Shown here: piece after piece, positions 4,225 to 21,146 of the stretch
How positions within the stretch are numbered: the first letter of the stretch is position 1
Layout of the letters: the number at the start of each line of letters is the position of its first letter
DNA from: a virus
Taxonomy: Duplodnaviria > Heunggongvirae > Uroviricota > Caudoviricetes
Direction: 5' to 3' (one strand)
Length of the DNA: 64,000 nucleotides
IMG/VR virus record: IMGVR_UViG_2909314774_000001
The notes under the pieces: generated by a model
The model's database searches: none
The model's input: only the letters and a program-made list of their open reading frames with translations
Told to the model about the DNA's origin: nothing
Program-made: the position numbers and the translations under genes

Positions 4225-4266
4225 CTATCGACTGCCCCGACCGGGGCAGTCTCACAAGGATGTGAG

Positions 4267-4602
4267 ATGGAAAGACAAACGTTTAATTGGTATCCAGATT
4301 ACGAATCTGAAAAAAGCGTAAAACCGAATGTAACGATACTTAATTTTGGTGATGACTACGAGCAGCGACAGGCTCAAGGTCTTAATCGTATTAAAGAAGA
4401 ATGGTCGTTAACCTTTACCAGATCATACAACGAAATTAATGCAATCGATGACTTCCTGACTGAGCGAGCAGGCGTTGAGTCGTTCTATTGGGTTAATCCA
4501 AGAGGAAAACGGATTGTAGTTGTATGTGACAGTCATACGGTCAAGCGATATCAGGGGTACTGTGTCTTAACTGCTACATTCAGACAAGTATTTGAGGCTT
4601 AA
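4267..4602 (+). CDS. minor tail protein M (lambda gpM-like)
   Basis: 111 aa, same size and position as lambda gpM; recalled similarity (FGDGY/FGDDYEQR segment, W-containing C-terminal half). Confidence 0.7.
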   Translation: MERQTFNWYPDYESEKSVKPNVTILNFGDDYEQRQAQGLNRIKEEWSLTFTRSYNEINAIDDFLTERAGVESFYWVNPRGKRIVVVCDSHTVKRYQGYCVLTATFRQVFEA

Positions 4603-4684
4603 GTATCTGGATAAGTAAGTACTAATTTACTATCATTGTGGCGCTGACAGGATGTTAGCGCCTACTTATTTCAAGGATGAAACA

Positions 4685-5383
4685 ATGGGAATTAAAGCTG
4701 ATATTCAGAGCTTATCTCCCTCTGCACTCATTGAGTTGTTCGTACTGGATATGTCGAACACAACTTCAGGGGGGAAGCTATTCTTCCACGCCGGAACAAA
4801 CGAACTGATGCAACCGGTCGTCTGGCAAGGAGTGACATACGAGCCGTGGCCAATCAAAGCATCAGGCTTTGACAAAACTGGCCAGGGAACGTTGCCACGT
4901 CCAAAAATTCAGGTATCGAACTTTGCCGGAACTGTCTCTGCGGAAGTTCAGGCAAACGACGATCTTGTTGGCTGCCGCATTATTCGCAAGATGACACTGG
5001 CTCGCTTCCTCGATGCCGTTAATTTTAAAGACGGCAACCCAACAGCAGATCCAAACCAACATTTCCCGGATGAAATGTGGTTTATCGAACAGAAAACTCT
5101 CGAAACTCATCAGGTTGTCGAGTTTGAATTGTCCAGTGTGTTCGATTTGATGGGGGTGCAACTGCCGTATCGTCAGATCATTAAAAACACCTGCCCGTGG
5201 AAATACCGAGGGCCAGAATGCGGCTATACCGGTCCATATTTCGACAAAAATAACCAGCAGACGTCTATGTCTGGTGCGGATTACTGCACAAAACGTTATG
5301 ACGCCTGTAATGCGCGTCGGAATTATTTTGCCGACGGTGTGATCCATTTTGGCGGATTTATTGGAGCTACGCGGTATGGGTAA
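4685..5383 (+). CDS. minor tail protein L (lambda gpL-like)
   Basis: Strong recalled similarity to lambda gpL (WQGxxYxPxPI, ARFLDAVNF, NTCxWxYRGxECGY, FGGF). Start chosen at ATG 4685 (AAGGA RBS 7 nt upstream) rather than ORF-track start 4652. Confidence 0.8.
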   Translation: MGIKADIQSLSPSALIELFVLDMSNTTSGGKLFFHAGTNELMQPVVWQGVTYEPWPIKASGFDKTGQGTLPRPKIQVSNFAGTVSAEVQANDDLVGCRIIRKMTLARFLDAVNFKDGNPTADPNQHFPDEMWFIEQKTLETHQVVEFELSSVFDLMGVQLPYRQIIKNTCPWKYRGPECGYTGPYFDKNNQQTSMSGADYCTKRYDACNARRNYFADGVIHFGGFIGATRYG

Positions 5384-6173
5384 TAAAGCAATCCCTGAGC
5401 TTGGCTCTGACGTTATGCAGCAAATCTATCTCTGCGCCATAAATCGCTACCCTAATGAAGCGTGTGGCTTTCTGGTTAGAACTAATGGCGACAAATATCG
5501 CTTTATGGAAGCGCGGAATGTTTCGGAGAACCCGCAGAACACTTTTGTAATGCACGTTGACGACATTATGGCGGCAGAGGATGCGGGTGATGTTATCGCA
5601 ATCTGGCATTCACATACTGATGAATCAGCAGAAGCATCTGATGCCGATCGTGCAGGCTGCGAAGCGACGGAAGTTCCGTGGATGATTCTGGCTATTCGCA
5701 AGAATGTTGAGGGAGATGCCCCTTTCCATTTTAGCGAGATGAATGTGATCACACCTGATGGTTTCGAAATGCCATACCTGGGCAGACCGTATGTATTTGG
5801 CGTATTCGATTGCTGGATGTTGTGTCGGGACTATTTGAAGCGTGAGTTTAACGTCGAACTAAACCCGAACGCACACCTGCATATTCCATCGTGGTACACC
5901 GGCGATAACGACATTCTCGATCAGAACTACCGTAACGAGGGATTGGTGCGTCTTGCGCCCGGAACAGAGCCTCAACGTGGGGACATCTTCTTTATCCAAT
6001 ACGGGAAAATGCCTGACCACTGCGCGGTTTATATCGGCGATGGAATGATTCTTCATCACCAGATCGACCGCCTTAGTTGTCGTGCTTATTACGGCGGAAT
6101 GTATCAGAAACATACGACGCATCACTTGCGTCACAGAGACTTGCTCAAGGGAGATGAGACGTGTCTGAGTTAG
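5376..6173 (+). CDS. tail assembly protein K (MPN/JAMM plus NlpC/P60 domains, lambda gpK-like)
   Basis: ACGF...HSHT...S.ADR JAMM-like motif followed by FDCWML and HCAVYIGDG.LHH NlpC/P60-like region; first ATG at 5376 overlaps the stop of L. Confidence 0.8.
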   Translation: MGNKAIPELGSDVMQQIYLCAINRYPNEACGFLVRTNGDKYRFMEARNVSENPQNTFVMHVDDIMAAEDAGDVIAIWHSHTDESAEASDADRAGCEATEVPWMILAIRKNVEGDAPFHFSEMNVITPDGFEMPYLGRPYVFGVFDCWMLCRDYLKREFNVELNPNAHLHIPSWYTGDNDILDQNYRNEGLVRLAPGTEPQRGDIFFIQYGKMPDHCAVYIGDGMILHHQIDRLSCRAYYGGMYQKHTTHHLRHRDLLKGDETCLS

Positions 6174-6754
6174 TTCATGTGCAGCTTGGCGGCCCTATGG
6201 CCAAACATTTTGGCCGCCACTGGCATCTAAAGGTGCGCAATACAAAACAGGCTCTGGATTTAATTGAGGCCAACAAGCCTGGGTTTAAAGCATGGATGAA
6301 GCGCAATATCAAAACCTATGACCGTTACCACATCCAGATCACCAATAAACAGGGCCACAAGTGGTCTGTTGACGAAAGTGAATATCAGATGATGGGGCAG
6401 TCTGACAACATTGCCAAAATCCGCATTACACCTGTTCCGCGAGGAAGCGGTGGATCTGCTTTTGGGTGGTTTCAGACGGTAGTAGGGGCCGCTTTGTTGG
6501 TTGTATCGGCGGTAGTGATGCCTGCTTTAGCACCTATCGGTTTGTCACTGATGATGGGCGGCATATCACAAATCATATCGCCGCAAGCCACTAACGAAAG
6601 TGTGAGACAGGCAGATAACTCGAACTCTTATTATTTCGACGGCCCTCAAAATACAGAAAACCAGGGCAACCCAGTACAACTTATCTATGGCGAGGAAATT
6701 CTGGTTGGCTCACAGGTTGTGAGTTCTTCAATCACGATTGACCAGCTAATGTAA
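6161..6754 (+). CDS. tail assembly protein I (lambda gpI-like)
   Basis: 197 aa between K and J homologues, GTG start overlapping K stop, hydrophobic C-terminal half as in lambda gpI. Confidence 0.65.
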   Translation: MSELVHVQLGGPMAKHFGRHWHLKVRNTKQALDLIEANKPGFKAWMKRNIKTYDRYHIQITNKQGHKWSVDESEYQMMGQSDNIAKIRITPVPRGSGGSAFGWFQTVVGAALLVVSAVVMPALAPIGLSLMMGGISQIISPQATNESVRQADNSNSYYFDGPQNTENQGNPVQLIYGEEILVGSQVVSSSITIDQLM

Positions 6755-9700
6755 ACAAGGATTTTTTTGAACATGGAACAGTTCAAGAAGAAAAAGTTAC
6801 CGCTGTTTATTGCAGGTGCGGGTGGTAAAAAAAGCAGCAAAAGCTCTAGCCGTACACCGGTTGAAGCCGACGATACCGTAAATTCTCGTGCAATGGCCGC
6901 TATCCTCGATCTTCTTGGGGAAGGTGTAATTGGCGGCTTGGTAAATGGCGCAAGATCTATTTTTGTCGACGATCTGCCGATTGTAAATGAAGACGGTTCC
7001 TCCAACTTCAGCGGAATCACATGGGATTTTCGCGACGGTTCGCAAGACCAGACTCCAATGTCTGGCTTTGATTTCGTTGAAACGCCTAAATCCGTCAATA
7101 TCCAGTTAAAAAAAACACATTATGTAACGGTTTCAATCGATAACGATGAAGCTGATCGGGTTCGTGTCATCATGAAGTTTCCTTCTTTGCGAAGCATAGA
7201 TAAAAAAACTGGTGACACGAACGGTACAACCGTTGAGTACAAGTTCCAGATAGCAAATGGCGACTCAACATTTGTAGATGTGGTCGCAGAAGGTGAAAAA
7301 AGCGTTGGCATTAAGCTAACAGCAAAGAAGACAGGTGTTTATTACCGTAGCTATGAGCTGAAGCTGCCTAAGCCTGGACGCGCGTACAAGGTTCGTGTAG
7401 TCCGTATTACCGATGATAACAGCAGCCAGTATCTCTATAACGATACATGGGTGGACTCAATAGGTGAGATTGTAGATACACCGATGAACTACCCAAACTC
7501 TGTGCTGGTGGGTCTGAAGGTTAATTCTGAGCAGTTTGGTAGCACCATGCCATCTCGTTCGTATTTGGTACGTGGATTAAAAATTCGCGTGCCGTCAAAC
7601 TACAACGAGGCCAGCAACACTTATGATGGTGTATGGGATGGCACTTTTAAGCTGTTGTCTTCTTCAAACCCCGCGTGGATTCTCTTTGATTTGCTTACCA
7701 ATGCTCGATATGGCCTTGGTCAGTATGTGTCGGAATCTATGATTGACCTCGGCCAGCTATACCAGATCGGTCGATATTGTGACGAAGAGGTTGATGATGG
7801 CTTTGGTGGTAAAGAGAAACGCTTTGCAATCAATACGCAGATCACCAGTCGACAGGACGCATACCGATTAATTCAGGATATTGCCGGTGCATTCCGCGGT
7901 ATGGTGTTTTGGGCTGGTGGCATGGTTAACATCATGCAGGATAGCCCATCAGATCCGGTAATGATGTTTACCAACTCTAACGTCAAAGATGGATTGTTTA
8001 CCTATAAAGGTTCTGCGCGTAAAGATCGCCCATCCGTTGCGCTCGTAACCTACAACAACAAGGAGGACGGTTATAAGCAAAACATCGAGTACGTTGAAGA
8101 TCAGGACGCAATGCGCCGTTATGGTGAGCGTAAGACAGAAGTCGTAGCATTTGGCTGTACAAGCCGAGGGCAGGCTCACCGAGTTGGTTTGTGGCTTTTA
8201 TATACCGCCAGAATGGAGTCGGATGTAATTACATTTACTGCCGGCTTAGACGCGTCATTTCTGATGCCTGGTGAAACCGTTCTGATTCAGAACAAATATC
8301 GCGCAGGCAAACGTAACTCAGGTCGAATTGTGGCGTTTACCAAAAACAGCGTCACACTCGATGCGCCGGTGTCGTTAGCCAAAGGCGGCTGCTTTATTCG
8401 AATACTGAATCAGGAAGGCAAAATCGTTGAACGCGATGTTCTTGAAACTGGCGAAAATATAACAAAAGTTACGTTTTCAAAATCCCTGTCTTCGGCTGAA
8501 ACGCCTGTTTTGAACGGCGTCTGGACTATTACAGAACCAGACCTCGAACCTATGCGCGTTCGCATCGTTAACATCGCGCAGGGGGAAACGCCGGGTAGCT
8601 TTGACATCACCGCTGTTGAGAACAATCCGTCTAAATATGAGGCAATCGACAATGGTGCAACGCTGATCCCGCAGAATACGACGGTATTGGACCCAACTTA
8701 CTCCAAGCCATCTAATCTGCAAATCACTGAAGGGACTTATCTCTCAAGCCCGGGCAACCTGTCAGTAAAACTGACTGCAACATGGGAAGGGAAATCTCCA
8801 GAGTATTGGATCAGTTGGCGACGTTCTGATGAAAACAATGTATCGAACTGGCAATCGGCGCGTGTAACCGAAGAGCAATACGAAATCGTTAATGTCGCGG
8901 AGAATGGACGCTACGACTTCCAACTGTATGCGGTTTCATTCAACGGTAAAAAAACAGAAATTATCAGTACCGTTTATCAGGTGCTGGGCACAATGACACC
9001 GCCGGATGCACCAACGTCATTAACGGCCGTTGGAGACTATCGTAATGTGATACTGAATTGGGTTAATCCAGATTCGGTGGACCTTGATCACATTAATGTT
9101 TACGCATCCCAGACCAACAATCTGGATACGGCGAAACTGATCGCAGAGTCTGCAAGCACCACCTTTACACATGCTGGTCTTGGGGATAGCGAAACGTGGT
9201 ATTACTGGGTTCGAGCATCGAACAAGCGAGGTATGTTAAGTCCTCCGAACTCAAACTTGGGTACAGAGGCGACAACTCGCGATGTACTGTCGTTCCTGAC
9301 TGGCAAAATTACATCTTCCGAGCTTGGTCAGGCTCTGCTTGAGGACATCAACAGCAAAGCCTCTCAAGAAGCAGTTGACGAGTTAAATGAGCATATCAAC
9401 CAGAGCGTCGAATCTTTGGAGGGGGCGGTAAACGACGTTAAGGAAGATATAGCTGAATTAGATAAGCAGTTCAGCGATAACCTCGCGGATTTTGAAATAA
9501 AATTCAACGAGCGTAGCGATGCTTTGGAGAACGCACAAACCGAGCTTAAAGGTGAGGTTTCGGCAACGATTGACAAGGTCAATGAAGCGTTTGAAAAAAT
9601 TGATGCTACTGATGCTGCAATTGTTGAAATCGAAAACACCGTATCTGAACACGATAAAGCTCTCGCTAATACAGTCGAGGCAATAAAGGCTGCAAGAGAT

Positions 9701-10041
9701 GAAGCGGCGGCTCTTATTGCTAAGGAAAGCGAGGCTCGTGTTGAAGGCGATGCTGCAAACGCTAAACAACTGGAAGTGTTGCAGTCAACGGTAGAGGAAA
9801 GCTCCGCTGCCGTTGAAGAAATGAAAAAGACGGTTGCAGAGGTCGATCGTGCCAGTGCAGAACTGACTACGAACATTGAGGCGTTAGCCAAAACAAATAT
9901 TGACCTGGCTCTTCGTCAAGATGAAGACCAGCACAAGCAGATGGTCAATAACGCGAAGATCGCAACAACACAGAAAACCTTTGCTGATGATATGTCTGCA
10001 ATGGCCACGAAGGTTGAGGAAATTCGGGTAATGACTCCAAC

Positions 10042-10545
10042 TTACTGATAGTGTTTTATGTTCAGATAATGCCCGATGACTTTGTCATGCAGCTCCACCG
10101 ATTTTGAGAACGACAGTGACTTCCGTCCCAGCCTTGCCAGATGTTGTCTCAGATTCAGGTTATGTCGCTCAATGCGCTGAGTGTAACGCTTGCTGATTAC
10201 GTGCAGCTTTCCCTTCAGGCGGGATTCATACAGCGGCCAGCCATCCGTCATCCATACCACGACCTCAAAGGCCGACAGCAGGCTCAGAAGACGCTCCAGT
10301 GTGGCCAGAGTGCGTTCACCGAAGACGTGCGCCACAACCGTCCTCCGTATCCTGTCATACGCGTAAAACAGCCAGCGCTGACGTGATTTAGCACCGACGT
10401 AGCCCCACTGTTCGTCCATTTCAGCGCAGACAATCACATCACTGCCCGGCTGTATGCGCGAGGTTACCGACTGCGGCCTGAGTTTTTTAAGTGACGTAAA
10501 ATCGTGTTGAGGCCAACGCCCATAATGCGGGCGGTTGCCCGGCAT
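10042..10545 (-). CDS. insB: IS1 InsB (transposase made as InsAB' by -1 frameshift)
   Basis: 167-aa frame matching IS1 InsB; the A6C slippery motif (TTAAAAAACTC on the coding strand) lies at 10481-10491 in the insA/insB overlap. Confidence 0.9.
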
Positions 10546-10739
10546 CCAACACCATTCATGGCCATATCAATGATTTTCTGGTGTGTACCGGGTTGAGAAG
10601 CGGTGTAAGTGAACTGCAGTTGCCATGTTTTACGGCAGTGAGAGCAGAGATAGCGCTGATGTCCGGCAGTACTTTTACCGTTACGCACCACGCCTTCAGT
10701 AGCTGAGCAGGAGGGACAACTGATGGAGATGGAAGCCAC
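10464..10739 (-). CDS. insA: IS1 InsA transposition regulator
   Basis: 91 aa [40 protein letters not shown]..., near-identical to canonical IS1 InsA as recalled; zinc finger CPSC...CSHC. Confidence 0.93.
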
Positions 10740-10905
10740 GGGAGCACCTCAAAAACACCATCATACACTAAATCAGTAAGTTGGCACCATTACCGAAATT
10801 CGCGTAGAAATTGGCGAAGACATTAAGGCCAGTATTCTGGAAGAGTCCACCGCTCGTGCCGATGGCGATGAAGCGTTGGCAAAGCGTGTCACTCAGCTGC
10901 AATCT

Positions 10906-11796
10906 AAGTTTGAAGGAGATATCAGCGCGGCGATTAGTACAGAGCAGGAGGCTCGTACATCTGCCGATGAAGCTCTGACGACACAGATCACTCAGCTTGA
11001 GTCGAAAGTAAGCAACGATATCGTCGCAGCTATTAAGGAAGAGCAAGAAGCCCGAGCAACGGAAGATTCGGCTCTGGCAAGCCAGATCACCCAACTTCAG
11101 GCAAAGGTTGATGATGATATTTCTGCTGCAATACGTAGTGAGCAGGAGGCTCGAGCAAGCGGGGACTCTGCGTTAGCCAAACAAATAAACCAGCTTCAGT
11201 CAAAGGTTGACGGTGATATATCCGCTGCCATCACTCAGGAGCAGGAGGCCAGGGCAAGTGCTGACCAGGCGCTCTCACGAGAAATTAACAGCCTGCGAGC
11301 ACAAACCGGAACTGATATTGCCGCAGCGGTTGCTGTAGAGACAAAAGCAAGGACTGATGCCGATAGTGCATTGTCTACCCAGATTACGTCTCTTACAGCA
11401 AAAGCTAATGATCTCGAGGCGTCTCTTGCCAGAGAAACAACGGCTCGTGCAGATGGTGATACCGCTTTAACAAAAGAGGTTTCAAGTTTAAAAGCACAGA
11501 CAGCGAAAGATATTAGTGCGGCCGTTGCAGTTGAAACGCAGGCTCGAACTGATGCTGACTCGGCGTTGTCGTCTCAGATCACCAAGCTGACCTCTCAATA
11601 CAAAGAGGATATTAAAGCGGCTGTAGCAACCGAAACGAAAACGCGTACAGAGCAAGATGCTGCATTGGCGACTCAAATCACAAACTTAGAGTCTCAAACG
11701 GCAGCCAACATTTCCGCGGCGGTAACAACTGAAACGACAGCGAGAACGCAGGCAGATAATGCTTTGAGTGGGCGAATCGATACTCTGAAAGCAGAG
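10906..11796 (+). repeat. nine tandem 99-bp (33-codon) coding repeats inside the J fibre gene
   Basis: Translation shows nine consecutive 33-aa units of the type K-V-D-x-D-I-S-A-A-I-x-x-E-Q-E-A-R-x-S-x-D-x-A-L-x-x-Q-I-T-Q-L-Q-(S/A). Confidence 0.85.
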
Positions 11797-12369
11797 GTGG
11801 ATGGAAATACCGCGACAATTCAACAGCAGGCAACAGCTATTGCTGATACCAACAAAAAAGTGTCAACCGCGTGGACGTTGAAAATGGAAACTTCAACGAG
11901 CGGAGGGCAGAAGTATGTTGCTGGTATTGCGCTTGGTATCGACACCACTGGCCTTTCTCAGTTTTTGGTGCAGGCTGACAGGTTTGGTTTGGTCAACTCT
12001 GTTAACGGGAAGATCACAACGCCATTTGTTATCGAAAACAGTATCGCCTATATGAATGGAGCGTATATCAAGGATGGCACAATCACCAATGCAAAAGTAG
12101 GCGATCTGCAATCTACCAATTTTGTTAGCGGTAGATCTGGATGGCGGTTCGGCAAAAATGGAACGCTTGAGATCAACGGTAATAGCGGCGGCAATGGGCG
12201 ATTGGTTATAAATGGTCAGCGGATTGACGTTTATGACGATAACAACGTCTTACGAGTAAGAATTGGCCGTCTGTGATGGTGGAAAAAAAATTTTATATCG
12301 GTAAAAATAGGTAAGTATTTACTTAATGGCGGGCAAGGATAGCCCGCCAAATCAAGGAGCATATTCAAC

Positions 12370-15300
12370 ATGTGGTACAGGGAAGGTACTATCACATTTA
12401 CACAGGGTAGCAATACTCTGGTTGGGGCAGGGACAGCCTGGAACGTAACAGCTAATGGTGTGTTGCCGGGGATGATCGTCATTGGCCCCGACAATAAGCT
12501 GTATGAGATCAAGCGCGTAACCAGTGATACGAACATTGTTCTCTCAGAACCTTATACCGGCGAAACTCAGTCTGAAGTTCCGTGCCGAATCATTACGACC
12601 TATGAAGGCGACTTAACACAGTTTAGCGCGCGCTTTACAGCACTAATGTCGCGTATGTCGGCTGATTCCAAGTCCATGCGCAGTTGGTTGACTGCTCTGG
12701 ATGAGGTGACAATCGAGCGTGAAGACGGTACAGAAGTGACCGTTAAGCCGCTAATGCAGATCGTCAACGAGCACAACGAAAACGTTGAGTGGTATAAAAA
12801 TAACACTGACGCGATTGATGCTGCTGGCGACAAAGCTCGTGAGGCGGCGGCCAGTGCTGCCGCAGCAGCAGAAAGCGCCAATATCGCTGGAGAAAAAGCC
12901 TCTCAAGCGTCTCAAAGTGCATCCGCTGCGGCATCCTCACAAAGTGCCGCAAGTGCGAGTGCAACTGCTGCGAAAAAATCTGAAACGAATGCTGCAGCGT
13001 CACAAAAATCTGCAGCCACTTCTGCATCCACCGCGACCACGAAAGCGTCAGAAGCTGCCACCTCAGCCAGAGATGCGTCGGCTTCAAAAGAGGCGGCAAA
13101 ATCATCAGAAACGAGCGCAGCCTCCTCGGCAACAGCGGCAGGCAATTCCGCGAAGGCGGCAAAAACGTCCGAGACGAACGCCAGGTCTTCTGAAACGGCA
13201 GCGGGACAGAGTGCCTCAGCTGCGGCAGGCTCAAAAACAGCGGCTGCGTCGTCTGCCAGTGCCGCGTCAACAAGTGCCGGGCAGGCCTCATCCAGTGCCA
13301 CCGCCGCCGGAAAATCGGCAGAAAGTGCCGCATCGTCTGCTTCAACAGCCACAACGAAGGCTGGCGAAGCCACTGAACAGGCCAGCGCAGCAGCGAGGTC
13401 TGCTTCCGCAGCGAAGACATCCGAAACGAACGCGAAAGCGTCGGAAACCCGTGCAGAATCCTCAAAAACGGCAGCCGCATCGTCCGCCAGTTCGGCAGCG
13501 TCATCGGCATCATCTGCGTCTGCTTCAAAAGATGAGGCGACCAGACAGGCGTCAGCAGCGAAGGGCAGCGCCACGACGGCATCCACGAAAGCAACAGAGG
13601 CGGCAGGCAGTGCGACGGCAGCATCTCAGAGCAAAACTGCTGCTGAATCCGCTGCGACCCGTGCGGAAGCTGCTGCTGATCGTGCTGAAGAGATTGCCGG
13701 TGCAGTTGCGATGGAAGACGCAAGCCTTACAACTAAAGGTGTTGTGAAACTTAGCAGTGCTGTCGATAGCACCAGCGAATCACTGGCTGCAACTCCAAAG
13801 GCAGTTAAAGCTGCGAATGACAATGCGAATAGCCGATTGGCGAAGAATCAGAATGGCGCTGATATCCCAGACAAGGGCCGCTTCCTGAGTAACATTAATG
13901 TTTACAGCAAAGGTGAAGTGGATAAGAAAAAGGGGATGCGAAAATACACTTTCTCTGCTCCTGCAAATGCAGTAAGCGGTAAGTGGTATCCTGTAGTCTT
14001 TCGCCGAACTGGTGGTGGCACAGATGAATTAGCCTCACGAGTGGTTATCACCACTTATTCCTCAGCTGGCGGATACGCCATGAATAATTGTGAATTTAAT
14101 GGGTTTGTTATGCCTGGCGGTTGGTCTGATCGCGGTTCATATGCGGCTGGTTTTTTCTCAATATATTCTACTGCTGAGCGAGCTATACACTCGATTATCG
14201 CAAGCGTGAAAGATGATGATTTGTGTAGTGTATTTTACGTTGAGACAAGAGCATTCCCTATCCAGATTTTTGCTGAGGAAGGATTAAATGTGATTGTTCC
14301 AACGGCTGATTATGCAGTTGGTCAAACCACTTATAAGTGGGGGGCAACTGATCCTTTATCAGAAAGTACGAATGCACAGATAATTTTGGACTTTAAAAAT
14401 GGACGAGGTTATTACTGTTCACATCCATTTATTTCAAGTCTTTCAGGAAATGCTGCTACAGCCACGAAATTGCAGACGGCAAGATCTATCGGTGGAGTTG
14501 TTTTCGACGGTTCTGCAAATATTAACCTTCCAGGTGTAAACACTACGGGTAATCAGAACACCACTGGTAATGCTGCAACTGCTACAAAACTTCAGACTGC
14601 AAGAAAAATATCCGGTGTTCCATTTGATGGTTCTACTGATATCACTTTAACCGCCGCGCATGTTGCCGCTTTCGCAAGAAGAGCAACAGGGTCATATGCT
14701 GATGCTGATGGCGGCGTGCCGTGGAATGCTGAATCTGGTGCTTATAATGTAACTAGAACGGGCGACAGTTATATTCTTGCCAACTTTTATACTGGTGTAG
14801 GTAGTTGCCGTACGCTTCAAATTAAGGCTAACTATAAAAATGGTGGGTTGTTTTATCGTTCATCTCGCGATGGCTATGGTTTTGAAAGTGGTTGGGAGCA
14901 GGTTTACACGACTGGATTTAGACCTCAGCCGGCTGATATAAACGCACCAACCGCTGCCGACGGATGGTTAAATAGTGGTAACGGAACAGCATTTACGACT
15001 GCTCAGTTTATAACGTGGCTAAATAATCAGGGTGCATTTTCAAACAAATATTGGATTGCACGGTGCTCATGGTATTACGCCAACAATAATTATATAGACG
15101 ACACTGGTTGCGGTAGGATCGATCTATCTGGTTCCGTGATTGAGGTGTTTAGTAATAAGACAACAAGCAATTACACTATTCGTGTTACAACGACAACAAC
15201 ATCGGGTCATGGTGGCGTTAATAATGCGGAATTTATTTATGTGTACAATGGCAGTGATTACTCGCCAGGCTGGCGTCGTTCTTATAATACTAGAAACAAA

Positions 15301-17655
15301 CCAACAGCTTCTGATGTAGGAGCATTATCGCTTTCTGGAGGAGCGTTAACTGGCGGATTAACTGCTGCTGGCGAGATTATTTCAAAATCGGCGAATGGTC
15401 TGCGCATTGCCTACGGAAACTACGGATTCTTTATCCGAAACGATGGTTCAAGCACATACTTCATGTTGACCGATTCGGGTAACAGCCTGGGAACCTATAA
15501 TAGTTTAAGGCCGCTTATCATTAACAATGCCAATGGTGCTGTTAGGATCGGTAATGGACTCAATGTTACTGGCGGCATCAATGGTAGTTTGAACGGTAAT
15601 GCTTCAACAGCTACGAAGTTGCAAACAGCGAGAAACATCAATGGTGTTAAGTTTGATGGTTCAGGCGATATCAATATTAATACATTGGTATCTCGTGGCC
15701 GAGTTACGGCGTTAAGCGGCTCTACTCAAGGCACTGCTGGCATTCAAATGTATGAGGCGTACAACAATAGCTACCCGACCACGTATGGCAACGTATTGCA
15801 CATGAAAGGTGCGAGTGCTGCTGGTGAGGGCGAGTTGCTTATTGGCTGGAGCGGAACGGATGGTGCTCATGCACCGGTTTATGTTCGTTCACGCCGTGAT
15901 ACTTCGACAGCGAATTGGTCTGGTTGGGCGCAGGTCTATACCACTGCTCATAAACCCACAGCGAAAGATGTTGGGGCTGCACAGACGTTTAGCGCGTCAT
16001 ACAGTACTGGGGCTGGCAACTGGACTACCGCTGAATTTATCGCATGGCTGAAGGAGCGTGGTGCTTTCGCCGTACCGTATTGGATGATGAAAGGCTCTTG
16101 GTCATATGCCGACAATAAAATTATCACTGATACAGGTGTCGGCAATATTTGTCTTGCTGGTGCGGTTATCGAGGTTTTAGGTCACGAAGGCGCAATGACC
16201 ATCCGAGTTACTACGCCTACAACGACAACCGGAGGTGGTATTGCCAGTGCTCAGTTCACCTATATTAATCACGGTAGCGCGTATGCCCCTGCCTGGCGCA
16301 GAGATTACAACACGACTCTCAAACCAACTGCGGCTGATGTTGGTGCGTTGCCGAGCGGTGGCGGCACACTTTCCGGCGCACTCACATTATCTATGGTTGC
16401 GCCGAGTGTTCAATTACGAGGGCAAGGTACTGATACCAGGCAGTACATCATGGCTTACAGAACCGATGGTGCTACATCATGGTATGTAGGTAAGGCTAAC
16501 AACGGCTCTGATAGCGCGATGCTCTGGAACTATACGGGGGCAAACGGAGTCGAGTTGGCTGCCGATGGCAATGTGCGCATTAATGCGAAGGGTAAGCAGT
16601 TTACGTTCGCAAACAACGGCAATTTGGGGCTTGTCGCTTCGTTGGATCAAAGTTCTGTTCCACAGGGCATTTACCATCAAGTTGCTATGAACTCTGGAAC
16701 CAGAGGTGCTAAATCCTATCTTCGTAAGTTCAGGGGTGGGAACGCAGATACCGTCTGGCATGAAACCGTTCAAGACGGAAATTACCGACTTGCTACTGGT
16801 GACACTGATTCTCAGGGTGAAATGTACCTTTCGACTTCGGGTTGGGTTCGTTTCCGTGGTGAAGTTGTTTCAGAATCGGCCAATGGTTTGCGAGCCGCAT
16901 TCGGTAACTTCGGTTTCTTTATCCGAAATGATGGAACGAACACTTATTTCCTTTTGACAGCTTCAGGTGACAAGTACGGTTCTTGGAATGGTTTGCGGCC
17001 TCTGACTATCAACAATGTCAGTGGCGCAGTGTCAATGAGCAACGGACTAACTGTTGCTGGTGGACTTAATGTAACGAGCGGAAACCTGAAAATCTCGACG
17101 TCCAGCACATCGTGGATCGACATGAGAGCAGGCGTAGCCCTTTCGAACTCTTCAGCTGTTTCGACGTCATCCGCTTCGGCGATAGTCCGTCAAGAACACG
17201 CCGATCGCCATTTCATTCTTGGCGGTTTGGGTAACTCGCAGTTCGGGATTTACATGATTAACAAATCTCGAACTGCGAACGGCACTGACGCTGCCGCTTA
17301 TCTCCAGAACGACGGCACTTGGGTTTGCGCAGGCAACGGTAGTTTTAATGACGTTTACATCCGTTCCGACCGCCGTAGTAAGCGCAATATTCGCAAAATT
17401 GAGCGGGCGCTCGACAAGCTGGAGCAGATCGAAGGTGTTCTCTACGAGATTCAGGTCTGTGGCCGTTATGAGCAGTCTGGTGGCCTCATCGCTCAGGATG
17501 TCCAGAATGTTCAGCCTGAACTGGTAACGGTCGACCATAACGATCAGTCAGGAGAGCCTCGTCTGCGTCTTAACTACAACGGCGTTATCGGCATGTTGGT
17601 TGAGGCTGTCAAAGAGCTGCGCGAGGAAGTGCGCGAACTGAAGGCAAAAATGTAA
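12370..17655 (+). CDS. side tail fibre protein (lambda Stf-like N-terminus and shaft, C-terminal S74-type intramolecular chaperone)
   Basis: Residues ~160-480 closely resemble the Ala/Ser-rich shaft of lambda Stf (KTSETNAAASQKSAATSASTATTKASEAATSARDA...ATPKAVK). C-terminal ~120 aa (SDRRSKRNIRKIERALDKLEQIEGVLYEIQ...LVEAVKELREEVRELKAKM) looks like the autoproteolytic chaperone domain found in endosialidase-type fibres. RBS CAAGGAG precedes the ATG. Confidence 0.85.
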   Translation: MWYREGTITFTQGSNTLVGAGTAWNVTANGVLPGMIVIGPDNKLYEIKRVTSDTNIVLSEPYTGETQSEVPCRIITTYEGDLTQFSARFTALMSRMSADSKSMRSWLTALDEVTIEREDGTEVTVKPLMQIVNEHNENVEWYKNNTDAIDAAGDKAREAAASAAAAAESANIAGEKASQASQSASAAASSQSAASASATAAKKSETNAAASQKSAATSASTATTKASEAATSARDASASKEAAKSSETSAASSATAAGNSAKAAKTSETNARSSETAAGQSASAAAGSKTAAASSASAASTSAGQASSSATAAGKSAESAASSASTATTKAGEATEQASAAARSASAAKTSETNAKASETRAESSKTAAASSASSAASSASSASASKDEATRQASAAKGSATTASTKATEAAGSATAASQSKTAAESAATRAEAAADRAEEIAGAVAMEDASLTTKGVVKLSSAVDSTSESLAATPKAVKAANDNANSRLAKNQNGADIPDKGRFLSNINVYSKGEVDKKKGMRKYTFSAPANAVSGKWYPVVFRRTGGGTDELASRVVITTYSSAGGYAMNNCEFNGFVMPGGWSDRGSYAAGFFSIYSTAERAIHSIIASVKDDDLCSVFYVETRAFPIQIFAEEGLNVIVPTADYAVGQTTYKWGATDPLSESTNAQIILDFKNGRGYYCSHPFISSLSGNAATATKLQTARSIGGVVFDGSANINLPGVNTTGNQNTTGNAATATKLQTARKISGVPFDGSTDITLTAAHVAAFARRATGSYADADGGVPWNAESGAYNVTRTGDSYILANFYTGVGSCRTLQIKANYKNGGLFYRSSRDGYGFESGWEQVYTTGFRPQPADINAPTAADGWLNSGNGTAFTTAQFITWLNNQGAFSNKYWIARCSWYYANNNYIDDTGCGRIDLSGSVIEVFSNKTTSNYTIRVTTTTTSGHGGVNNAEFIYVYNGSDYSPGWRRSYNTRNKPTASDVGALSLSGGALTGGLTAAGEIISKSANGLRIAYGNYGFFIRNDGSSTYFMLTDSGNSLGTYNSLRPLIINNANGAVRIGNGLNVTGGINGSLNGNASTATKLQTARNINGVKFDGSGDININTLVSRGRVTALSGSTQGTAGIQMYEAYNNSYPTTYGNVLHMKGASAAGEGELLIGWSGTDGAHAPVYVRSRRDTSTANWSGWAQVYTTAHKPTAKDVGAAQTFSASYSTGAGNWTTAEFIAWLKERGAFAVPYWMMKGSWSYADNKIITDTGVGNICLAGAVIEVLGHEGAMTIRVTTPTTTTGGGIASAQFTYINHGSAYAPAWRRDYNTTLKPTAADVGALPSGGGTLSGALTLSMVAPSVQLRGQGTDTRQYIMAYRTDGATSWYVGKANNGSDSAMLWNYTGANGVELAADGNVRINAKGKQFTFANNGNLGLVASLDQSSVPQGIYHQVAMNSGTRGAKSYLRKFRGGNADTVWHETVQDGNYRLATGDTDSQGEMYLSTSGWVRFRGEVVSESANGLRAAFGNFGFFIRNDGTNTYFLLTASGDKYGSWNGLRPLTINNVSGAVSMSNGLTVAGGLNVTSGNLKISTSSTSWIDMRAGVALSNSSAVSTSSASAIVRQEHADRHFILGGLGNSQFGIYMINKSRTANGTDAAAYLQNDGTWVCAGNGSFNDVYIRSDRRSKRNIRKIERALDKLEQIEGVLYEIQVCGRYEQSGGLIAQDVQNVQPELVTVDHNDQSGEPRLRLNYNGVIGMLVEAVKELREEVRELKAKM

Positions 17656-17721
17656 TCAAGGTGAATGGTGAGGGGCCACCCTCACCAATTCAGGATATTC
17701 ACATCAAAAAGGAGATTAGAT

Positions 17722-18504
17722 GTGCCAATTGTCGGTGTTCCCGGTTGGATTGGGTCTTCGGCTGTCAGTGTGACAGGCCAGAGATGGATGAGTGCGGCTC
17801 GAACGGCGGTGCAACTGCCAGCGGCTGGTTCAATGTCTCAAATGGCCGGGCGATCTAAAGAAGTTCAGTACAGCATCGGTGCGAATCATAACTACAACAA
17901 AGACACACTGATCAACTATTTAAAATCCCAGGGGGCGACGCCAGTCGTTGTTACCATTACAGGGGATCTGGTGTCGTCCAGTAGCGGCGTGCCATGTTTA
18001 GATTTCCCGAGTTCACTTACCAACTCTTATATCAGCCTTGTAATCAACGCAGGTGTGACTGTCTATGGACGCGGTGGCAATGGTGGTAGTAACGCTGCCG
18101 GTGCTGCTGGTGGTAACGCAATTAATAATGGCATCGGTACACGCTTGCGTATTACGAATAATGGTGCAATCGCTGGAGGTGGCGGCGGCGGTGGCGGCGG
18201 TAACAGGGGTAAACTAATATTTGGTGGTGGCGGTGGTCGCCCATTCGGTGCTGGTGGGTCTTCCTCTCATATGAGTTCCGGTGCAACTGCTGGTACTATT
18301 TCCGCTCCTGGTAAAGGATCTGTTGGTGAGGGGTCTCTTAGTGCATATACAGGCGGTTCGGGTGGTAATGTCGGTGCTGCTGGAGGAAGATGTAATACTC
18401 AAGGTAACGGTACAGAATATAACGGCGGAGCAGCTGGTAAAGCCGTAACTGGCAACGCGCCTACATGGACTAAAGCTGGGGCAATTTACGGCGCTCATGT
18501 GTAA
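17722..18504 (+). CDS. glycine-rich protein, possible gp38-like tail-fibre adhesin
   Basis: GTG start with AAAGGAG RBS 7 nt upstream; C-terminal half is made of poly-Gly motifs (GGGGGGGGGNRGK, FGGGGGRPFGAGG, GGSGGNVGAAGG) separated by short variable segments; sits immediately 3' of the fibre gene. Confidence 0.45.
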   Translation: MPIVGVPGWIGSSAVSVTGQRWMSAARTAVQLPAAGSMSQMAGRSKEVQYSIGANHNYNKDTLINYLKSQGATPVVVTITGDLVSSSSGVPCLDFPSSLTNSYISLVINAGVTVYGRGGNGGSNAAGAAGGNAINNGIGTRLRITNNGAIAGGGGGGGGGNRGKLIFGGGGGRPFGAGGSSSHMSSGATAGTISAPGKGSVGEGSLSAYTGGSGGNVGAAGGRCNTQGNGTEYNGGAAGKAVTGNAPTWTKAGAIYGAHV

Positions 18505-18578
18505 GTACTTACCTACCAAGTGTGGGCGTTTTATGATATAAAACCGCCATCCCGATTTGACGATTCATGGAGGAAATA

Positions 18579-18902
18579 ATGTCGAACGAGATGGCAGGCG
18601 TAACGCCAGAGCAGGTAGAGCGCATTGCCGCTATCGTTGCGCGTGAAGTTGTCGGCAAATTAGGTAAGGAGTTGCGTGAGGAAATTGGCCAGGAGGTCAA
18701 CGACCAGCTCAAAACCTACTTTGGCGATATGACGCCTTCGCAACACAGCATTCAGCACTCCAACCTGGACAAACTACTTAATCGGCTAGACGCCATCTCC
18801 AGCGGGTTCTTTGGCGGCATTATCTCAAAGATAACGTCGTTCCTGATTACCGCGCTGCTGCTGGGTCTGGCCGCTTATGGCGTGAAGAATGGACTGCAAT
18901 AA
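18579..18902 (+). CDS. small membrane protein, holin candidate
   Basis: GGAGG RBS; hydrophilic N-terminus then a C-terminal hydrophobic helix (FFGGIISKITSFLITALLLGLAAYGV); first gene of the putative lysis cassette. Confidence 0.35.
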   Translation: MSNEMAGVTPEQVERIAAIVAREVVGKLGKELREEIGQEVNDQLKTYFGDMTPSQHSIQHSNLDKLLNRLDAISSGFFGGIISKITSFLITALLLGLAAYGVKNGLQ

Positions 18903-18914
18903 CAGGAGATCAAG

Positions 18915-19608
18915 GATGAAAACTCCGAGAGGCATTCGTAATAACAACCCTGGCAACCTCGACAAAGGTTCGCCGTGGCAGGGGCTAATCGACAACCCTG
19001 CCGAACCGCGCTTTTGCACGTTTAAAGACCCTGTTTGGGGGATTCGTGCGCTGGCGGTGACTCTAATTACCTACCACGATAAACGTCGCGCAAAAGACGG
19101 CACAAGTATCGATACCATTCGTGAAGTTATTGAACGTTGGGCACCGCCGAATGAAAACAACACTGACGCCTACATTAATGAGGTGTCTAAAGCCGTTGGT
19201 GTAACCGCAGACATGATCATCGATCTGCATGATTACGACATTCTTCGACCTTTGGTTGAGGCAATCATTCGCCATGAGAATGGGCGAGGTCCGCTAAAAA
19301 CGCTGAACACCTGGTATGCGGCAGAAGTTATTGAGGAAGGTCTGCGTCGAGCTGGCGTCGTTAAGCCGGTGAAAACCGTGAAGGCTGTTCCTGTAACTAA
19401 AGAAACTGCAGGCGCAACTGTTACAGCAGGTATTGGTCTGGCGCAGCTGGCCGATGTTATGCCGCAGGTTTCCGCTGCTATGGATAAAGCACAAGGTCAT
19501 ATCTCTAGCGGGGATACAGTACGCATCATCTTCGGTATTGCCACTATTGTTGTGGCAGGATTCATTGCCTGGTCGCAGGTAAGAAAACACCAGAAAGGGA
19601 TGGTCTAA
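18915..19608 (+). CDS. lysis-cassette protein with C-terminal membrane anchor (possible cell-wall hydrolase)
   Basis: AGGAG RBS; N-terminal RNNNPGNL...W motif region; C-terminal TM helix IIFGIATIVVAGFIAW; position between holin candidate and spanins. No catalytic motif I can name with certainty. Confidence 0.3.
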
Positions 19609-20029: not shown

Positions 20030-20551
20030 TTATTCTTCGAACAATTTTTCGATAGATTTTGTAGGATAGAACAAAGAACGCTCGTTGTTACCAACCAGCT
20101 GGATAAAGCCTAAACTTTTATAAAACGCCTTGGCTTTGTCATTTAACGCCTCAACGAAAAGTCCATGAATGCCTACAGCAAGAGATGCATTGTACACAAC
20201 GCGCATTGCATGTGTTACAAGCATTGAGCCAAATCCTTGACCTTGAAGGGACTTGTCCAAAGCCAGCCTACCCAAAGTAACACTTGGAACATTCCGATAA
20301 GGAACCTTCTTTTGTTTGCTTCTTGAAGGTAAGGACTCCTTTTCAAAACAACTACCTGACAAAGTGTAATATCCTAACACTTTTGGCCTTTCTTCTTGAG
20401 TGCAAAGCACATAAGCACGAAGAATTTTTCCCTCATGCTGCCTTTTTAAGTGGTTGGCTAAAAAGGCGTTTAGTGACTCTTCGCCGCAATCAAAACCGTT
20501 TAGATCATAATCTTTCTCTCCAGAGAAAATCTCTATCGTTGTATTGCTCAC
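20030..20551 (-). CDS. GNAT-family acetyltransferase toxin (TacT/KacT/AtaT-like)
   Basis: 173 aa with GNAT acetyl-CoA binding signature (LALDKSLQGQGFGSMLV); immediately downstream (8-nt gap) of a DUF1778-type RHH antitoxin gene. Confidence 0.75.
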   Translation of the reverse strand: MSNTTIEIFSGEKDYDLNGFDCGEESLNAFLANHLKRQHEGKILRAYVLCTQEERPKVLGYYTLSGSCFEKESLPSRSKQKKVPYRNVPSVTLGRLALDKSLQGQGFGSMLVTHAMRVVYNASLAVGIHGLFVEALNDKAKAFYKSLGFIQLVGNNERSLFYPTKSIEKLFEE

Positions 20552-20558
20552 GAGTAAA

Positions 20559-20828
20559 CTACTCCATGCTTTTCAGACGATCAGCAGCTCGTTTCAGCTT
20601 GTCGTTCGGTGCCGGAGGATTGCTTATAGCGTCCATAACCAGATTCCAGGATTCTTCATTCAGAACTAGTCTACGGTGTTGCTCTATAACTTTCACGGCA
20701 CGTTCAGATGCACTGCTAACCATAAACTGAGTAATGCTCTGGTTAGACATTGCGGCAGCTTCCTCGATGATGCTTTTATCGTCATCGGTTAATCTCAAAT
20801 CGATGCGCTGCTTTTTTAGTGCTGACAT
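20559..20828 (-). CDS. RHH antitoxin (TacA/KacA-like, DUF1778)
   Basis: ~89 aa from MSALKKQRIDLRLTDDDKSIIEEAA (AGGAGG RBS 6 nt upstream); N-terminal ribbon-helix-helix and C-terminal PAPN-type tail typical of antitoxins paired with GNAT toxins. Confidence 0.7.
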   Translation of the reverse strand: MSALKKQRIDLRLTDDDKSIIEEAAAMSNQSITQFMVSSASERAVKVIEQHRRLVLNEESWNLVMDAISNPPAPNDKLKRAADRLKSME

Positions 20829-21146
20829 GTATTCCTCCTGATGGCCGTGATGTAGGAAGGCCATCAATCTCCTCTGTTCAAACTGAGTTTTCGACTCAAA
20901 AATTACTTTAAAAGGCTATAGCCCATTACGTGTGCATTATCAAATTGTGTACGGCATATCACCGTACTTGTAATATAGAGGTCATTGTTACTTTTTTCAA
21001 CAGACAAATACAAGCTATGATTGCCAATTGTTAATCACAACCTACCATTTAACCTTTACACCGCAGCCGTAGGCATTTAGGCTATATCACATATAAGAAA
21101 ACAAGTTGTTTCAGACGATAATTATATACGCAAAGGGAACTCTCCA

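Follow-up and report, generated by a model that had tools for sequence, protein, structure and literature searches.

The window, the whole 64,000-nucleotide stretch of DNA that was analysed, carries a side tail fibre gene 3' of a J-type gene and, 66 nt beyond its stop codon, a gene for a gp38-type adhesin. The fibre reading frame is as a preliminary description of the sequence had given it (12370-17655, + strand), with an ATG start, an AAGGAG Shine-Dalgarno sequence at 12354-12359 and a product of 1761 residues. PHROG tail-fibre families match this product, and an identical protein is already known at NCBI (KXG57665.1 / WP_428841206.1) from a 111-kb E. coli contig. A search of NCBIfam returned no match for either the fibre or the adhesin protein. 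The features of the locus are as follows.

12370..17655, + strand: side tail fibre gene, 1761 aa, stop codon included in the coordinates (open reading frame list)
12370..12894, + strand: putative N-terminal anchor, aa 1-175, confined to SSU5-like phage-plasmids (DNA matches only from SSU5-like elements)
12895..13869, + strand: Ala/Ser-rich shaft, lambda Stf-like, aa about 176-500 (protein and DNA matches)
13870..14439, + strand: all-beta knob (AF2 model, mostly strands)
14446..14644, + strand: two collar motifs, GNAATATKLQTARxIxGVxFDGSxxI, aa about 693-759 (motif and DNA repeats)
14542..15594, + strand: super-repeat copy A, aa 725-1075, comprising collar, Y, X and beta-prism P1 (self-comparison)
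15595..16659, + strand: super-repeat copy B, aa 1076-1430, comprising collar, Y, X and a degenerate prism, gp37_trimer (self-comparison)
16837..17100, + strand: beta-prism module P2 of T4 gp34 P4 type, aa 1490-1577 (Pfam Gp34_trimer)
17101..17364, + strand: distal domain resembling Mu S, aa 1578-1665, with GNGSFNDVYIR as its last residues; predicted tip of the mature fibre (homology)
17365..17652, + strand: S74 intramolecular chaperone (IMC), aa 1666-1761 (Pfam PF13884)
17662..17692, + strand: stable hairpin in the gap 3' of the fibre gene (RNA folding energy -26 kcal/mol, z = -3.2)
17722..18504, + strand: gp38-type receptor-recognising adhesin, 260 aa, GTG start (Pfam, PDB match)

The gene order J - fibre - adhesin - holin/endolysin is that of SSU5-like elements, and the fibre locus is common to SSU5, Cyrano, CMS-2020a and non-mobilizable Enterobacteriaceae plasmids of about 110 kb. 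The adhesin start was set by alignment to the T2/T6 N-termini and by RefSeq annotation of relatives; it is preceded by an AAGGAG Shine-Dalgarno sequence at 17709-17714. The hairpin in the 66-nt gap (17656-17721) lacks a T-run and is thus no canonical terminator. A scan of 12000-19000 for promoters and terminators found sites no more numerous than in shuffled sequence.

The first 175 residues are peculiar to the SSU5-like family; in DNA, SSU5 is 74% identical over gene nt 1-741. Fixing the fibre to the tail would be a plausible role for this domain. The preliminary description had likened the N-terminal 480 or so residues to lambda Stf. This is right for aa about 200-490, which match lambda orf-401 residues 205-394 (57-83% aa identity, E = 5e-24 and 2e-12, BLASTP), but it fails for the first 175-200 residues: aa 1-200 show no similarity to orf-401 in BLASTP (best E = 1.9), which rules out a lambda-like N-terminus. 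BLASTP of the fibre against lambda orf-314 and Tfa gave no match. The shaft DNA (gene nt 525-1529) is 83-93% identical to lambdoid side tail fibre genes and contains short degenerate internal repeats (family D1).

Beyond the shaft lies a region (aa about 501-690) that matches nothing in Pfam. Its homologues are Escherichia tail fibres only (homologue search, 16-sequence alignment), and its DNA is common to fibres of phage HdSG1 (91%) and of P2-like phages (77%). An AF2 model is strand-dominated (pLDDT 65, pTM 0.69), and Foldseek of this model against the PDB found nothing better than E = 0.06, TM 0.34.

The knob opens the AT-rich centre of the gene. GC3 is lowest at aa 501-993 (0.27-0.33); the shaft has 0.44 and the distal part 0.43-0.60, so that the break in composition noted earlier persists under codon-position control and is real. 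Segment by segment, the DNA matches different relatives, and DNA and protein comparisons found no characterised fibre colinear with the full-length protein. The picture of a mosaic side tail fibre with a compositionally foreign centre is supported.

The collar sequence TATKLQTAR occurs at aa 697, 737 and 1080, the three copies that had been reported. The corresponding 79-nt DNA units lie at 14446, 14566 and 15595 and share 68-73% identity with one another. Among reference fibres a regular expression finds the collar once in T6 gp37 (aa 78), once in SSU5_021 (aa 653) and nowhere else. Several homologues carry a precomputed PF03406 (Phage_fiber_2) assignment, yet the isolated motifs match no Pfam family even at E = 10, and we leave the collar unassigned.

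Whole-protein self-BLAST gave the identity match alone; the longer repeats emerged from a scan with 100-aa fragments. Both of the repeated modules proposed from the raw sequence are present in two copies: ANGLR...LRPLxINN at aa 994-1082 and 1490-1577 (about 60% identical, fragment-BLAST E = 5e-32), and ...IRVTT...WRRxYNTxxKPTAxDVGAL at aa 901-998 and 1244-1339 (55% identical, E = 1e-32). What the preliminary description gave as modules of some 95 and 70 residues are, however, each only part of a super-repeat of about 350 residues, in which aa about 725-1082 correspond to about 1068-1430 at an offset of about 343. The prism module recurs a third time, in degenerate form, at aa about 1335-1420, where Pfam places gp37_trimer at aa 1348-1406. 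This marginal hit (22.5 bits, cutoff 21.7) is the only match for the region aa 1340-1489, which resembles nothing among the reference fibres compared.

An alternative reading of this layout is that an SSU5-type fibre was recently lengthened by tandem duplication within the gene, through slippage or unequal crossing-over. The unit does lie in tandem at a constant offset, SSU5_021 has a single copy of it, and the allele of pYPE3-114k differs by an in-frame stretch of about 106 aa. The relationships of the copies nevertheless make it very unlikely. Sibling modules are 53-65% identical in protein, with DNA similarity of about 70% or undetectable, whereas modules outside this gene, in SSU5 or Mu, reach 81-93%. 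SSU5_021 matches Y_B at 86% and X_B at 93% identity, and X_A and Y_A at only about 50%. Y_A (Pfam gp37_C, 2.5e-7) is 47% identical to Mu S' residues 164-256 and lies nearer to Mu S' than to Y_B; for X_A the identity to Mu S' 41-168 is 51.5%, and for P1 that to Mu S 270-337 is 81%. The order of X and Y is opposite in Mu S'. GC3 also differs, being 0.27-0.32 in copy A up to aa 993 and 0.45 in copy B. Finally, pYLMB30c has the same two-copy layout at 94% nucleotide identity, so the arrangement is not private to this element. On these comparisons of identity, of GC3 and with homologues outside the gene, recent in-gene duplication was rejected, and the description of the gene as internally duplicated does not stand. 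Since siblings are less alike than their outside homologues in SSU5, Mu S/S' and T4 gp34, and since GC3 changes in steps, the comparisons argue that the repeated modules are paralogues joined by recombination between different donor fibres.

The distal modules are of T-even and Mu types (Gp34_trimer, gp37_C, gp37_trimer, Mu S/S'), and several have homologues of solved structure: Mu S/S' (8JU3, 5YVQ), T4 gp34 (4UXE) and S16 gp37 (6F45_A). Gp34_trimer (PF21446) scores 182.7 bits in three stretches, above its gathering score, with sub-fragments at 110.5 and 85.2 bits. P2 is 55-57% identical to T4 gp34 1042-1122 (PDB 4UXE) and 72% to Mu S. According to PMC5537660, gp34 1042-1122 covers segments of beta-helix together with the gap that separates them; that gap would correspond to the P4 prism. 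The domain that follows P2 is 57% identical to Mu S 273 to about 430 (PDB 5YVQ). Its final residues, about 11 in number, are common to T6 gp37, the 90 aa before the cleavage junction are Mu-S-like, and the pre-junction region is 32% identical to slur04 gp37 in a gapped alignment. With only these last residues in common with T6 gp37, conservation of the docking surface, in gp37 an interdigitated beta-helix ahead of the cleavage site, is not demonstrable on this basis.

The extreme C-terminus is an S74-type intramolecular chaperone, as had been recognised: Peptidase_S74 (PF13884) matches aa 1666-1720 of 1761 with 43-46 bits (cutoff 22), and the IMC aligns to S16 gp37 in PDB 6F45_A (4.5e-13). A Ser1666/Lys1671 dyad is found at IR^SDRRSK, with the serine at the junction and the lysine five residues on. 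This junction aligns with VS^SDRRIK of S16 and IR^SDxRLK of T2/T6; the junctions of S16 and fPS are given as DLNVS^SDRRIKK and DVYIR^SDGRLKI (PMC7917993). We predict cleavage of the T2/T6/S16 type between R1665 and S1666, at GNGSFNDVYIR^SDRRSK.

The preliminary description let the device end at this chaperone and overlooked the adhesin gene downstream. The adhesin matches Pfam GP38 (PF05268, 3.8e-70) and Gp38_N (PF21721, 9.7e-15), aligns over its full length to S16 gp38 in PDB 6F45_D (4.7e-47, aa 27-277 of the 279-aa ORF) and is 71-82% identical to T-even gp38. Its exact sequence is present on 160 contigs, and 86 PLSDB plasmids carry the adhesin. The gene directly follows a fibre that ends in a predicted cleavable IMC. 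In S16, autocleavage of the IMC exposes the docking surface for gp38 (PMC7917993, PMC6851490), and gp38 attaches by inserting three conserved tryptophans into as many symmetric pockets on the fibre trimer (PMC6851490). Two of the three prongs are retained here (GW9, RW22). At the third site, where T2, T6, slur04, S16 and SSU5 gp22 have Trp (PGWMS in T-even gp38, PFWMS in SSU5 gp22), the adhesin reads AAGSMSQ; none of the four phage-plasmid adhesin alleles of polyglycine type that were compared has Trp there, each carrying Ser (as here) or Asn instead.

Might the fibre nonetheless be the receptor-binding protein on its own? The Mu-S-like tip, or the lateral X/Y knobs, would then bind LPS or another receptor once the S74 domain is removed, as in T5 pb1 or K1F-type proteins, and the gp38-like protein would be accessory, sit on another fibre or not belong to the virion. 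The likeness of the tip to the Mu S distal region (57%) and the missing tryptophan prong favour this, as do the pSLy3-type relatives, which carry a fibre with no gp38 gene downstream and indicate that fibres of this family can work without gp38. Mu S, moreover, binds LPS through a tip that lies beyond the region matched here, so lateral or tip domains of the present fibre could contribute to binding. We consider it unlikely. The adhesin retains an intact Gp38_N domain and lies 66 nt past the fibre stop codon, as in T2, T6 and S16, and the cleavage junction is the same as in T6 gp37. The extreme C-terminus of Mu S, beyond residue about 430, is here replaced by the IMC. SSU5 gp22, the homologue of the adhesin, is itself credited with receptor binding; PMC12312913, citing Kim et al. 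2014, describes it as a tail-fibre protein that binds the LPS core. We take SSU5 gp22 to be SSU5_022 from the locus tag. The adhesin gene thus likely encodes the receptor-binding element, a reading drawn from homology and gene order.

The upstream J gene is split by IS1 at 10031-10794. Its halves are 98-99% identical to intact J, which points to a recent insertion. With J split, this element's copy is probably not infectious, and function in this element cannot be assumed. One could go further and regard the whole locus as a decaying remnant that makes no infectious particles, with a drifting fibre and adhesin whose architecture carries no functional meaning; the abstract of PMC12977533 describes defective phage-plasmids as common. 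Such an interpretation is scarcely credible, as both the 5.3-kb fibre reading frame and that of the adhesin are intact, an identical adhesin occurs on 160 contigs and the IS1 insertion appears recent.

We consider it highly probable that the fibre is a trimeric SSU5-like side tail fibre which, with the gp38-type adhesin, forms a two-protein receptor-binding device in the style of T2, T6 and S16 on a siphovirus. (i) The family-specific domain (aa 1-175) would fix the trimer to the tail tip. (ii) The Ala/Ser shaft and a beads-on-a-string series of a beta knob, three collars, two Y, two X and two to three gp34-type prisms, all recognised by homology, would give reach. (iii) The S74 chaperone (aa 1666-1761) would nucleate folding of the trimer, after which autoproteolysis at Ser1666/Lys1671 would release it; motif and domain are present, and the cleavage is proposed by analogy with S16 and T2. 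(iv) A single gp38 monomer would then dock through its N-terminal helical domain on the exposed Mu-S-like tip, as homology to PDB 6F45 and gene order suggest. (v) The hypervariable loops of the gp38 polyglycine sandwich may bind an outer-membrane protein, conceivably Tsx, a guess prompted by one figure, the 69.5% identity of the adhesin C-terminal part to T6 gp38, its closest type. Most likely, then, the fibre end cuts itself off so that a T2/T6-type gp38 adhesin can cap the tip.

Modular tail-fibre exchange, S74 chaperones and gp38 adhesins are textbook phenomena. The fibre adds a new allele to a fibre system already known to be highly mosaic, and is an ordinary member of its kind; with genes already annotated in public records, the case is illustrative and not surprising. 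Phage-plasmids of the SSU5-like group are common across E. coli, Shigella, Enterobacter, Citrobacter and Salmonella, some with resistance genes (for example blaCTX-M-15), and their host range would be set by the fibre-plus-adhesin cassette. If the tip is of T-even gp38 type, its hypervariable loops are the place to look for prediction or engineering of host range. The locus documents traffic of modules among virulent T-even phages, Mu, lambdoid prophages and phage-plasmids. As a tentative extension, which we think possible and yet improbable, phage-plasmids may have taken a T-even gp38 cassette onto a Mu-S-like tip with two-prong docking, and exchange may be ongoing between virulent T-even phages and temperate, often AMR-carrying phage-plasmids, as aa identity of up to 82% would suggest. 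Were this so, plasmid host range could be read and re-targeted from the gp38 hypervariable loops, and the interface with its 3-to-1 symmetry mismatch would prove less strict than the S16 structure implies. Our literature search found no paper linking gp38 adhesins to phage-plasmids.

Among known systems, SSU5 is the closest in layout, with the same order of J, fibre, 'receptor-recognising adhesin' and lysis genes. Its gp21 is 56% identical over the anchor and shaft (aa 1-480), SSU5_021 is 81% identical over the Mu-S-like tip and IMC (aa 1568-1761), and gp22 (SSU5_022) has the gp38 N-terminal attachment domain in common with the adhesin. SSU5 gp21 is, however, only 1260 aa long, with a single collar-Y-X unit and another region in place of the knob, and gp22 is a 178-aa LPS core binder whose C-terminal domain is not glycine-rich, whereas here the adhesin is 260 aa long and of the polyglycine-sandwich type. 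Like lambda Stf (orf-401/orf-314 plus Tfa), the fibre is encoded 3' of J and has a homologous Ala/Ser-rich shaft, exchanged with lambdoid phages; unlike it, the N-terminal 175-200 aa have no similarity to lambda, and an intramolecular chaperone, plus a separate adhesin gene, stands where lambda uses Tfa.

Against Mu S 234-445 (PDB 5YVQ, 8JU3) the prisms and the distal domain show 57-81% identity, and against the variable part of S' the X and Y domains show 47-64%. Mu differs in module order (X-Y in S', Y-X here) and in having an invertible G segment, absent from this locus, and here the IMC takes the place of both the C-terminal 60 or so residues of S and its Tfa-type chaperone, U. T4 gp34 1042-1122 shares 55.6% identity with fibre aa 1497-1577, and gp34 1024-1267 shares 31.5% with fibre aa 984-1224; in T4 these modules belong to the proximal half-fibre that joins gp35, and here to the distal half of a single-chain fibre. 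The relationship to T5 pb1 and the K1F endosialidase rests on the shared Pfam S74 model. In T2, T6, S16 and slur04, as here, the gp38 gene lies directly 3' of the fibre gene. Fibre tips of the T2/T6/S16 type likewise have an S74 IMC with an SD(R/x)RxK junction, and T6 gp37 has the same ...GNGSF(N/S)DVYIR^SD sequence. T2, T6 and S16 are, by contrast, myoviruses of the Straboviridae with fibres built from gp34-37, whereas the present locus belongs to a temperate siphovirus phage-plasmid whose single 1761-aa fibre carries a Mu-S-like tip before the junction.

The fibre gene lies in the order IS1-split J-type tail-tip gene, fibre, 260-codon gene and lysis cassette, with a Shine-Dalgarno sequence AAGGAG (12354-12359) ahead of its ATG. 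The features are as follows (A and B denote the two copies of a super-repeat within the fibre).

12370-17655, +: side tail fibre ORF, ATG start, 1761 codons uninterrupted
aa 1-175, +: N-terminal anchor, common only to SSU5-like elements
aa ~176-500, +: Ala/Ser shaft, DNA 83-93% identical to lambdoid side tail fibre genes
aa ~501-690, +: all-beta knob, found too in phage HdSG1 and P2-like phage fibres
aa 691-1577, +: T-even/Mu-type modules, by Pfam and PDB sequence matches
aa 1578-1665, +: Mu S-like distal domain, 57% identical to Mu S up to ~residue 430
aa 1666-1720, +: Peptidase_S74 (Pfam), the intramolecular chaperone (IMC)
17722-18504, +: gp38 adhesin gene, GTG start, 260 codons, by Pfam, PDB and T-even homology

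The preliminary description had likened the N-terminal ~480 aa to lambda Stf. This holds for aa ~200-490 only (57-83% identical to lambda orf-401 residues 205-394), whereas residues 1-200 show no similarity to that protein (best E = 1.9). The knob belongs to no Pfam family, and its medium-confidence AF2 model matched no solved structure. Residues 691-1577 contain three Gp34_trimer stretches, gp37_C and gp37_trimer, and match Mu S/S' (8JU3, 5YVQ) and T4 gp34 (4UXE). The ANGLR module aligns with T4 gp34 1042-1122, taken by position to be the P4 prism domain since PMC5537660 places a triple beta-helix segment on either side of it (1014-1047 and 1105-1128). Mu S sequence past ~430 is exchanged for the S74 domain, whose C-terminal presence had been correctly recognised, as had the composition break with its AT-rich centre. 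In raw GC the shaft (0.56-0.63) stands above the stretch 13950-15750 (0.40-0.46). GC3 is the fairer measure, since Ala/Ser codons account for some of the shaft's GC richness; it falls from 0.56 (anchor) through 0.44 (shaft) to 0.27-0.33 (aa 501-993) and is 0.43-0.60 distally.

An identical protein, encoded on a 111-kb E. coli contig, is in NCBI as KXG57665.1 ('hypothetical protein') and WP_428841206.1 ('phage tail fiber protein'). In plasmids pSLy3 (reference locus L008:4001-8299) and pYPE3-114k (L009:2501-7678) the RefSeq fibre start lies 384-435 nt past the conserved ATG, and in pYLMB30c (L005:7001-12430) RefSeq flags the gene as a pseudogene 'missing N-terminus'; the anchor thus often goes unannotated. 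GC-rich hairpins directly follow the stops of J (12328-12348) and the fibre (17662-17692; -26 kcal/mol, z = -3.2 by RNA folding). Both lack a T-run, so instead of terminating transcription they may stabilise the mRNA or mark sites of its processing.

All the repeats noted earlier are present: three TATKLQTAR collars (aa 697, 737, 1080; 79-nt DNA units 68-73% identical among themselves), two ANGLR...LRPLxINN copies (aa 994-1082 and 1490-1577; ~60% identity, E = 5e-32) and two ...IRVTT...WRRxYNTxxKPTAxDVGAL copies (aa 901-998 and 1244-1339; 55%, E = 1e-32; both by fragment-versus-whole BLAST). Both modules are pieces of a tandem super-repeat (aa ~725-1082 versus ~1068-1430, offset ~343 aa), each copy running collar, Y domain, X domain, beta-prism. 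The modules compare with their siblings (P1 and P2, ANGLR-type prisms) and nearest outside matches as follows.

X_B: 53% to X_A; SSU5 gp21, 93%
Y_B: 31-aa match only to Y_A; SSU5 gp21, 86%
X_A: 53% to X_B; SSU5 gp21 and Mu S', ~51%
Y_A: 31-aa match only to Y_B; Mu S', 47%
P1: 65% to P2; Mu S, 81%

The modules had been called internally duplicated, but X_B is far closer to the SSU5 fibre, gp21, than to its sibling, and we reject duplication in place. Against it stand (i) these identities; (ii) the opposite order of X and Y in Mu S'; (iii) GC3, ~0.3 in copy A versus ~0.45 in copy B; (iv) the module content of relatives. The SSU5 fibre has a single super-repeat unit, the pYLMB30c fibre a swapped knob, and the pSLy3 fibre is common to this one only over gene nt 1-1464 and 2077-3576. 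The pYPE3-114k fibre, 88-94% identical elsewhere, lacks ~106 aa of copy B (aa ~1203-1308 of the window's fibre), so alleles vary in their number of modules. The pattern fits exchange between different fibres by recombination at conserved joints, as is classic for tail fibres.

The preliminary description had the fibre end in the S74 chaperone and overlooked the adhesin gene that starts 66 nt past the fibre's stop, after the stable hairpin and an AAGGAG. The product, by homology a gp38 adhesin of full length, matches Pfam GP38 (3.8e-70) and Gp38_N (9.7e-15), S16 gp38 (PDB 6F45 chain D, 4.7e-47) and T-even gp38 (71-82% aa identity). Over the glycine-rich/hypervariable C-terminal part it shares 69.5% identity with T6 gp38 and 58% with T2 gp38; 86 PLSDB plasmids carry the adhesin, conserved in its N-terminal part and variable in its C-terminal part.

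At the S74 boundary the fibre residues, GNGSFNDVYIR^SDRRSK, agree with the junction of T6 gp37 and with the cleavage sites published for S16 and fPS (PMC7917993). In S16, IMC autocleavage bares a surface for one gp38 monomer, which docks by three helices tipped with Trp (PMC7917993, PMC6851490). The tip and IMC of SSU5 are the same, and its gp22 shares the adhesin's attachment domain; PMC12312913 cites gp22 as the tail-fibre protein binding LPS core. We consider it likely that the IMC drives trimer folding and self-cleaves at the predicted site R1665^S1666, that the adhesin would then cap the Mu-S-like tip, and that its hypervariable loops would bind an outer-membrane protein. The adhesin's resemblance to T6 gp38 points, weakly, to Tsx as this receptor. 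The docking surface is gp37-like only over the last ~11 residues, and the main rival, that the fibre alone binds the receptor, seems to us improbable beside capping by gp38.

The third Trp prong of the attachment domain (adhesin residue 37) is Ser/Asn (AAG[S/N]MSQ) in all four phage-plasmid polyglycine-type alleles compared (window 17722-18504, L012:6001-6789, L013:6001-6786 and L009:7745-8527), unlike T2, T6, slur04, S16 and SSU5 gp22, which have Trp. The fibre tip on which these Ser/Asn-type adhesins would sit differs little from that of SSU5. Outside phage-plasmid record CMS-2020a, the nearest phage homologue of the adhesin (82% aa identity) is in Escherichia phage vB_EcoM_PTE-Eco09, a Krischvirus (L006:4501-5259), where it sits near tk and rI, a long way from the tail-fibre genes, and is annotated in three pieces, each 'hypothetical protein'. 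In pSLy3-type relatives no gp38 adhesin follows the fibre; two small ORFs and cor do, the three genes also found after gp22 in SSU5 (L008:8360-9463, L002:10363-11470). These are absent from the window, where lysis genes directly follow the adhesin. Just past the lysis cassette (20030-20867, -) lies a GNAT-family toxin and TacA-type antitoxin pair, so named from synteny with pYLMB30c, whose locus is annotated.

At the DNA level the closest relatives are non-mobilizable plasmids of ~105-120 kb, from E. coli, Shigella, Enterobacter, Citrobacter, Salmonella and Yersinia, together with phages SSU5, Cyrano and CMS-2020a, a relationship that assigns the window to an SSU5-like phage-plasmid. The disruption of J by IS1 (10031-10794) reported earlier is real. 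The halves (6767-10048 and 10876-12276) match the intact J of pYLMB30c at 98-99% identity, which makes the insertion recent; the sequences flanking IS1 align with positions 1408-5437 and 5426-7031 of that plasmid's locus, and their 12-nt overlap there is consistent with a target-site duplication. A particle made from this copy would probably be non-infectious.

Among the three collections compared, no record has this exact allele, and the top match is pYLMB30c (88-90% coverage, ~95% identity). The literature searched yielded no paper on polyglycine-type gp38 adhesins of phage-plasmids, a modest gap and no surprise. Fibre and adhesin are a new allele of a known system, already annotated in relatives as 'tail fiber domain-containing protein' and 'receptor-recognizing protein'.
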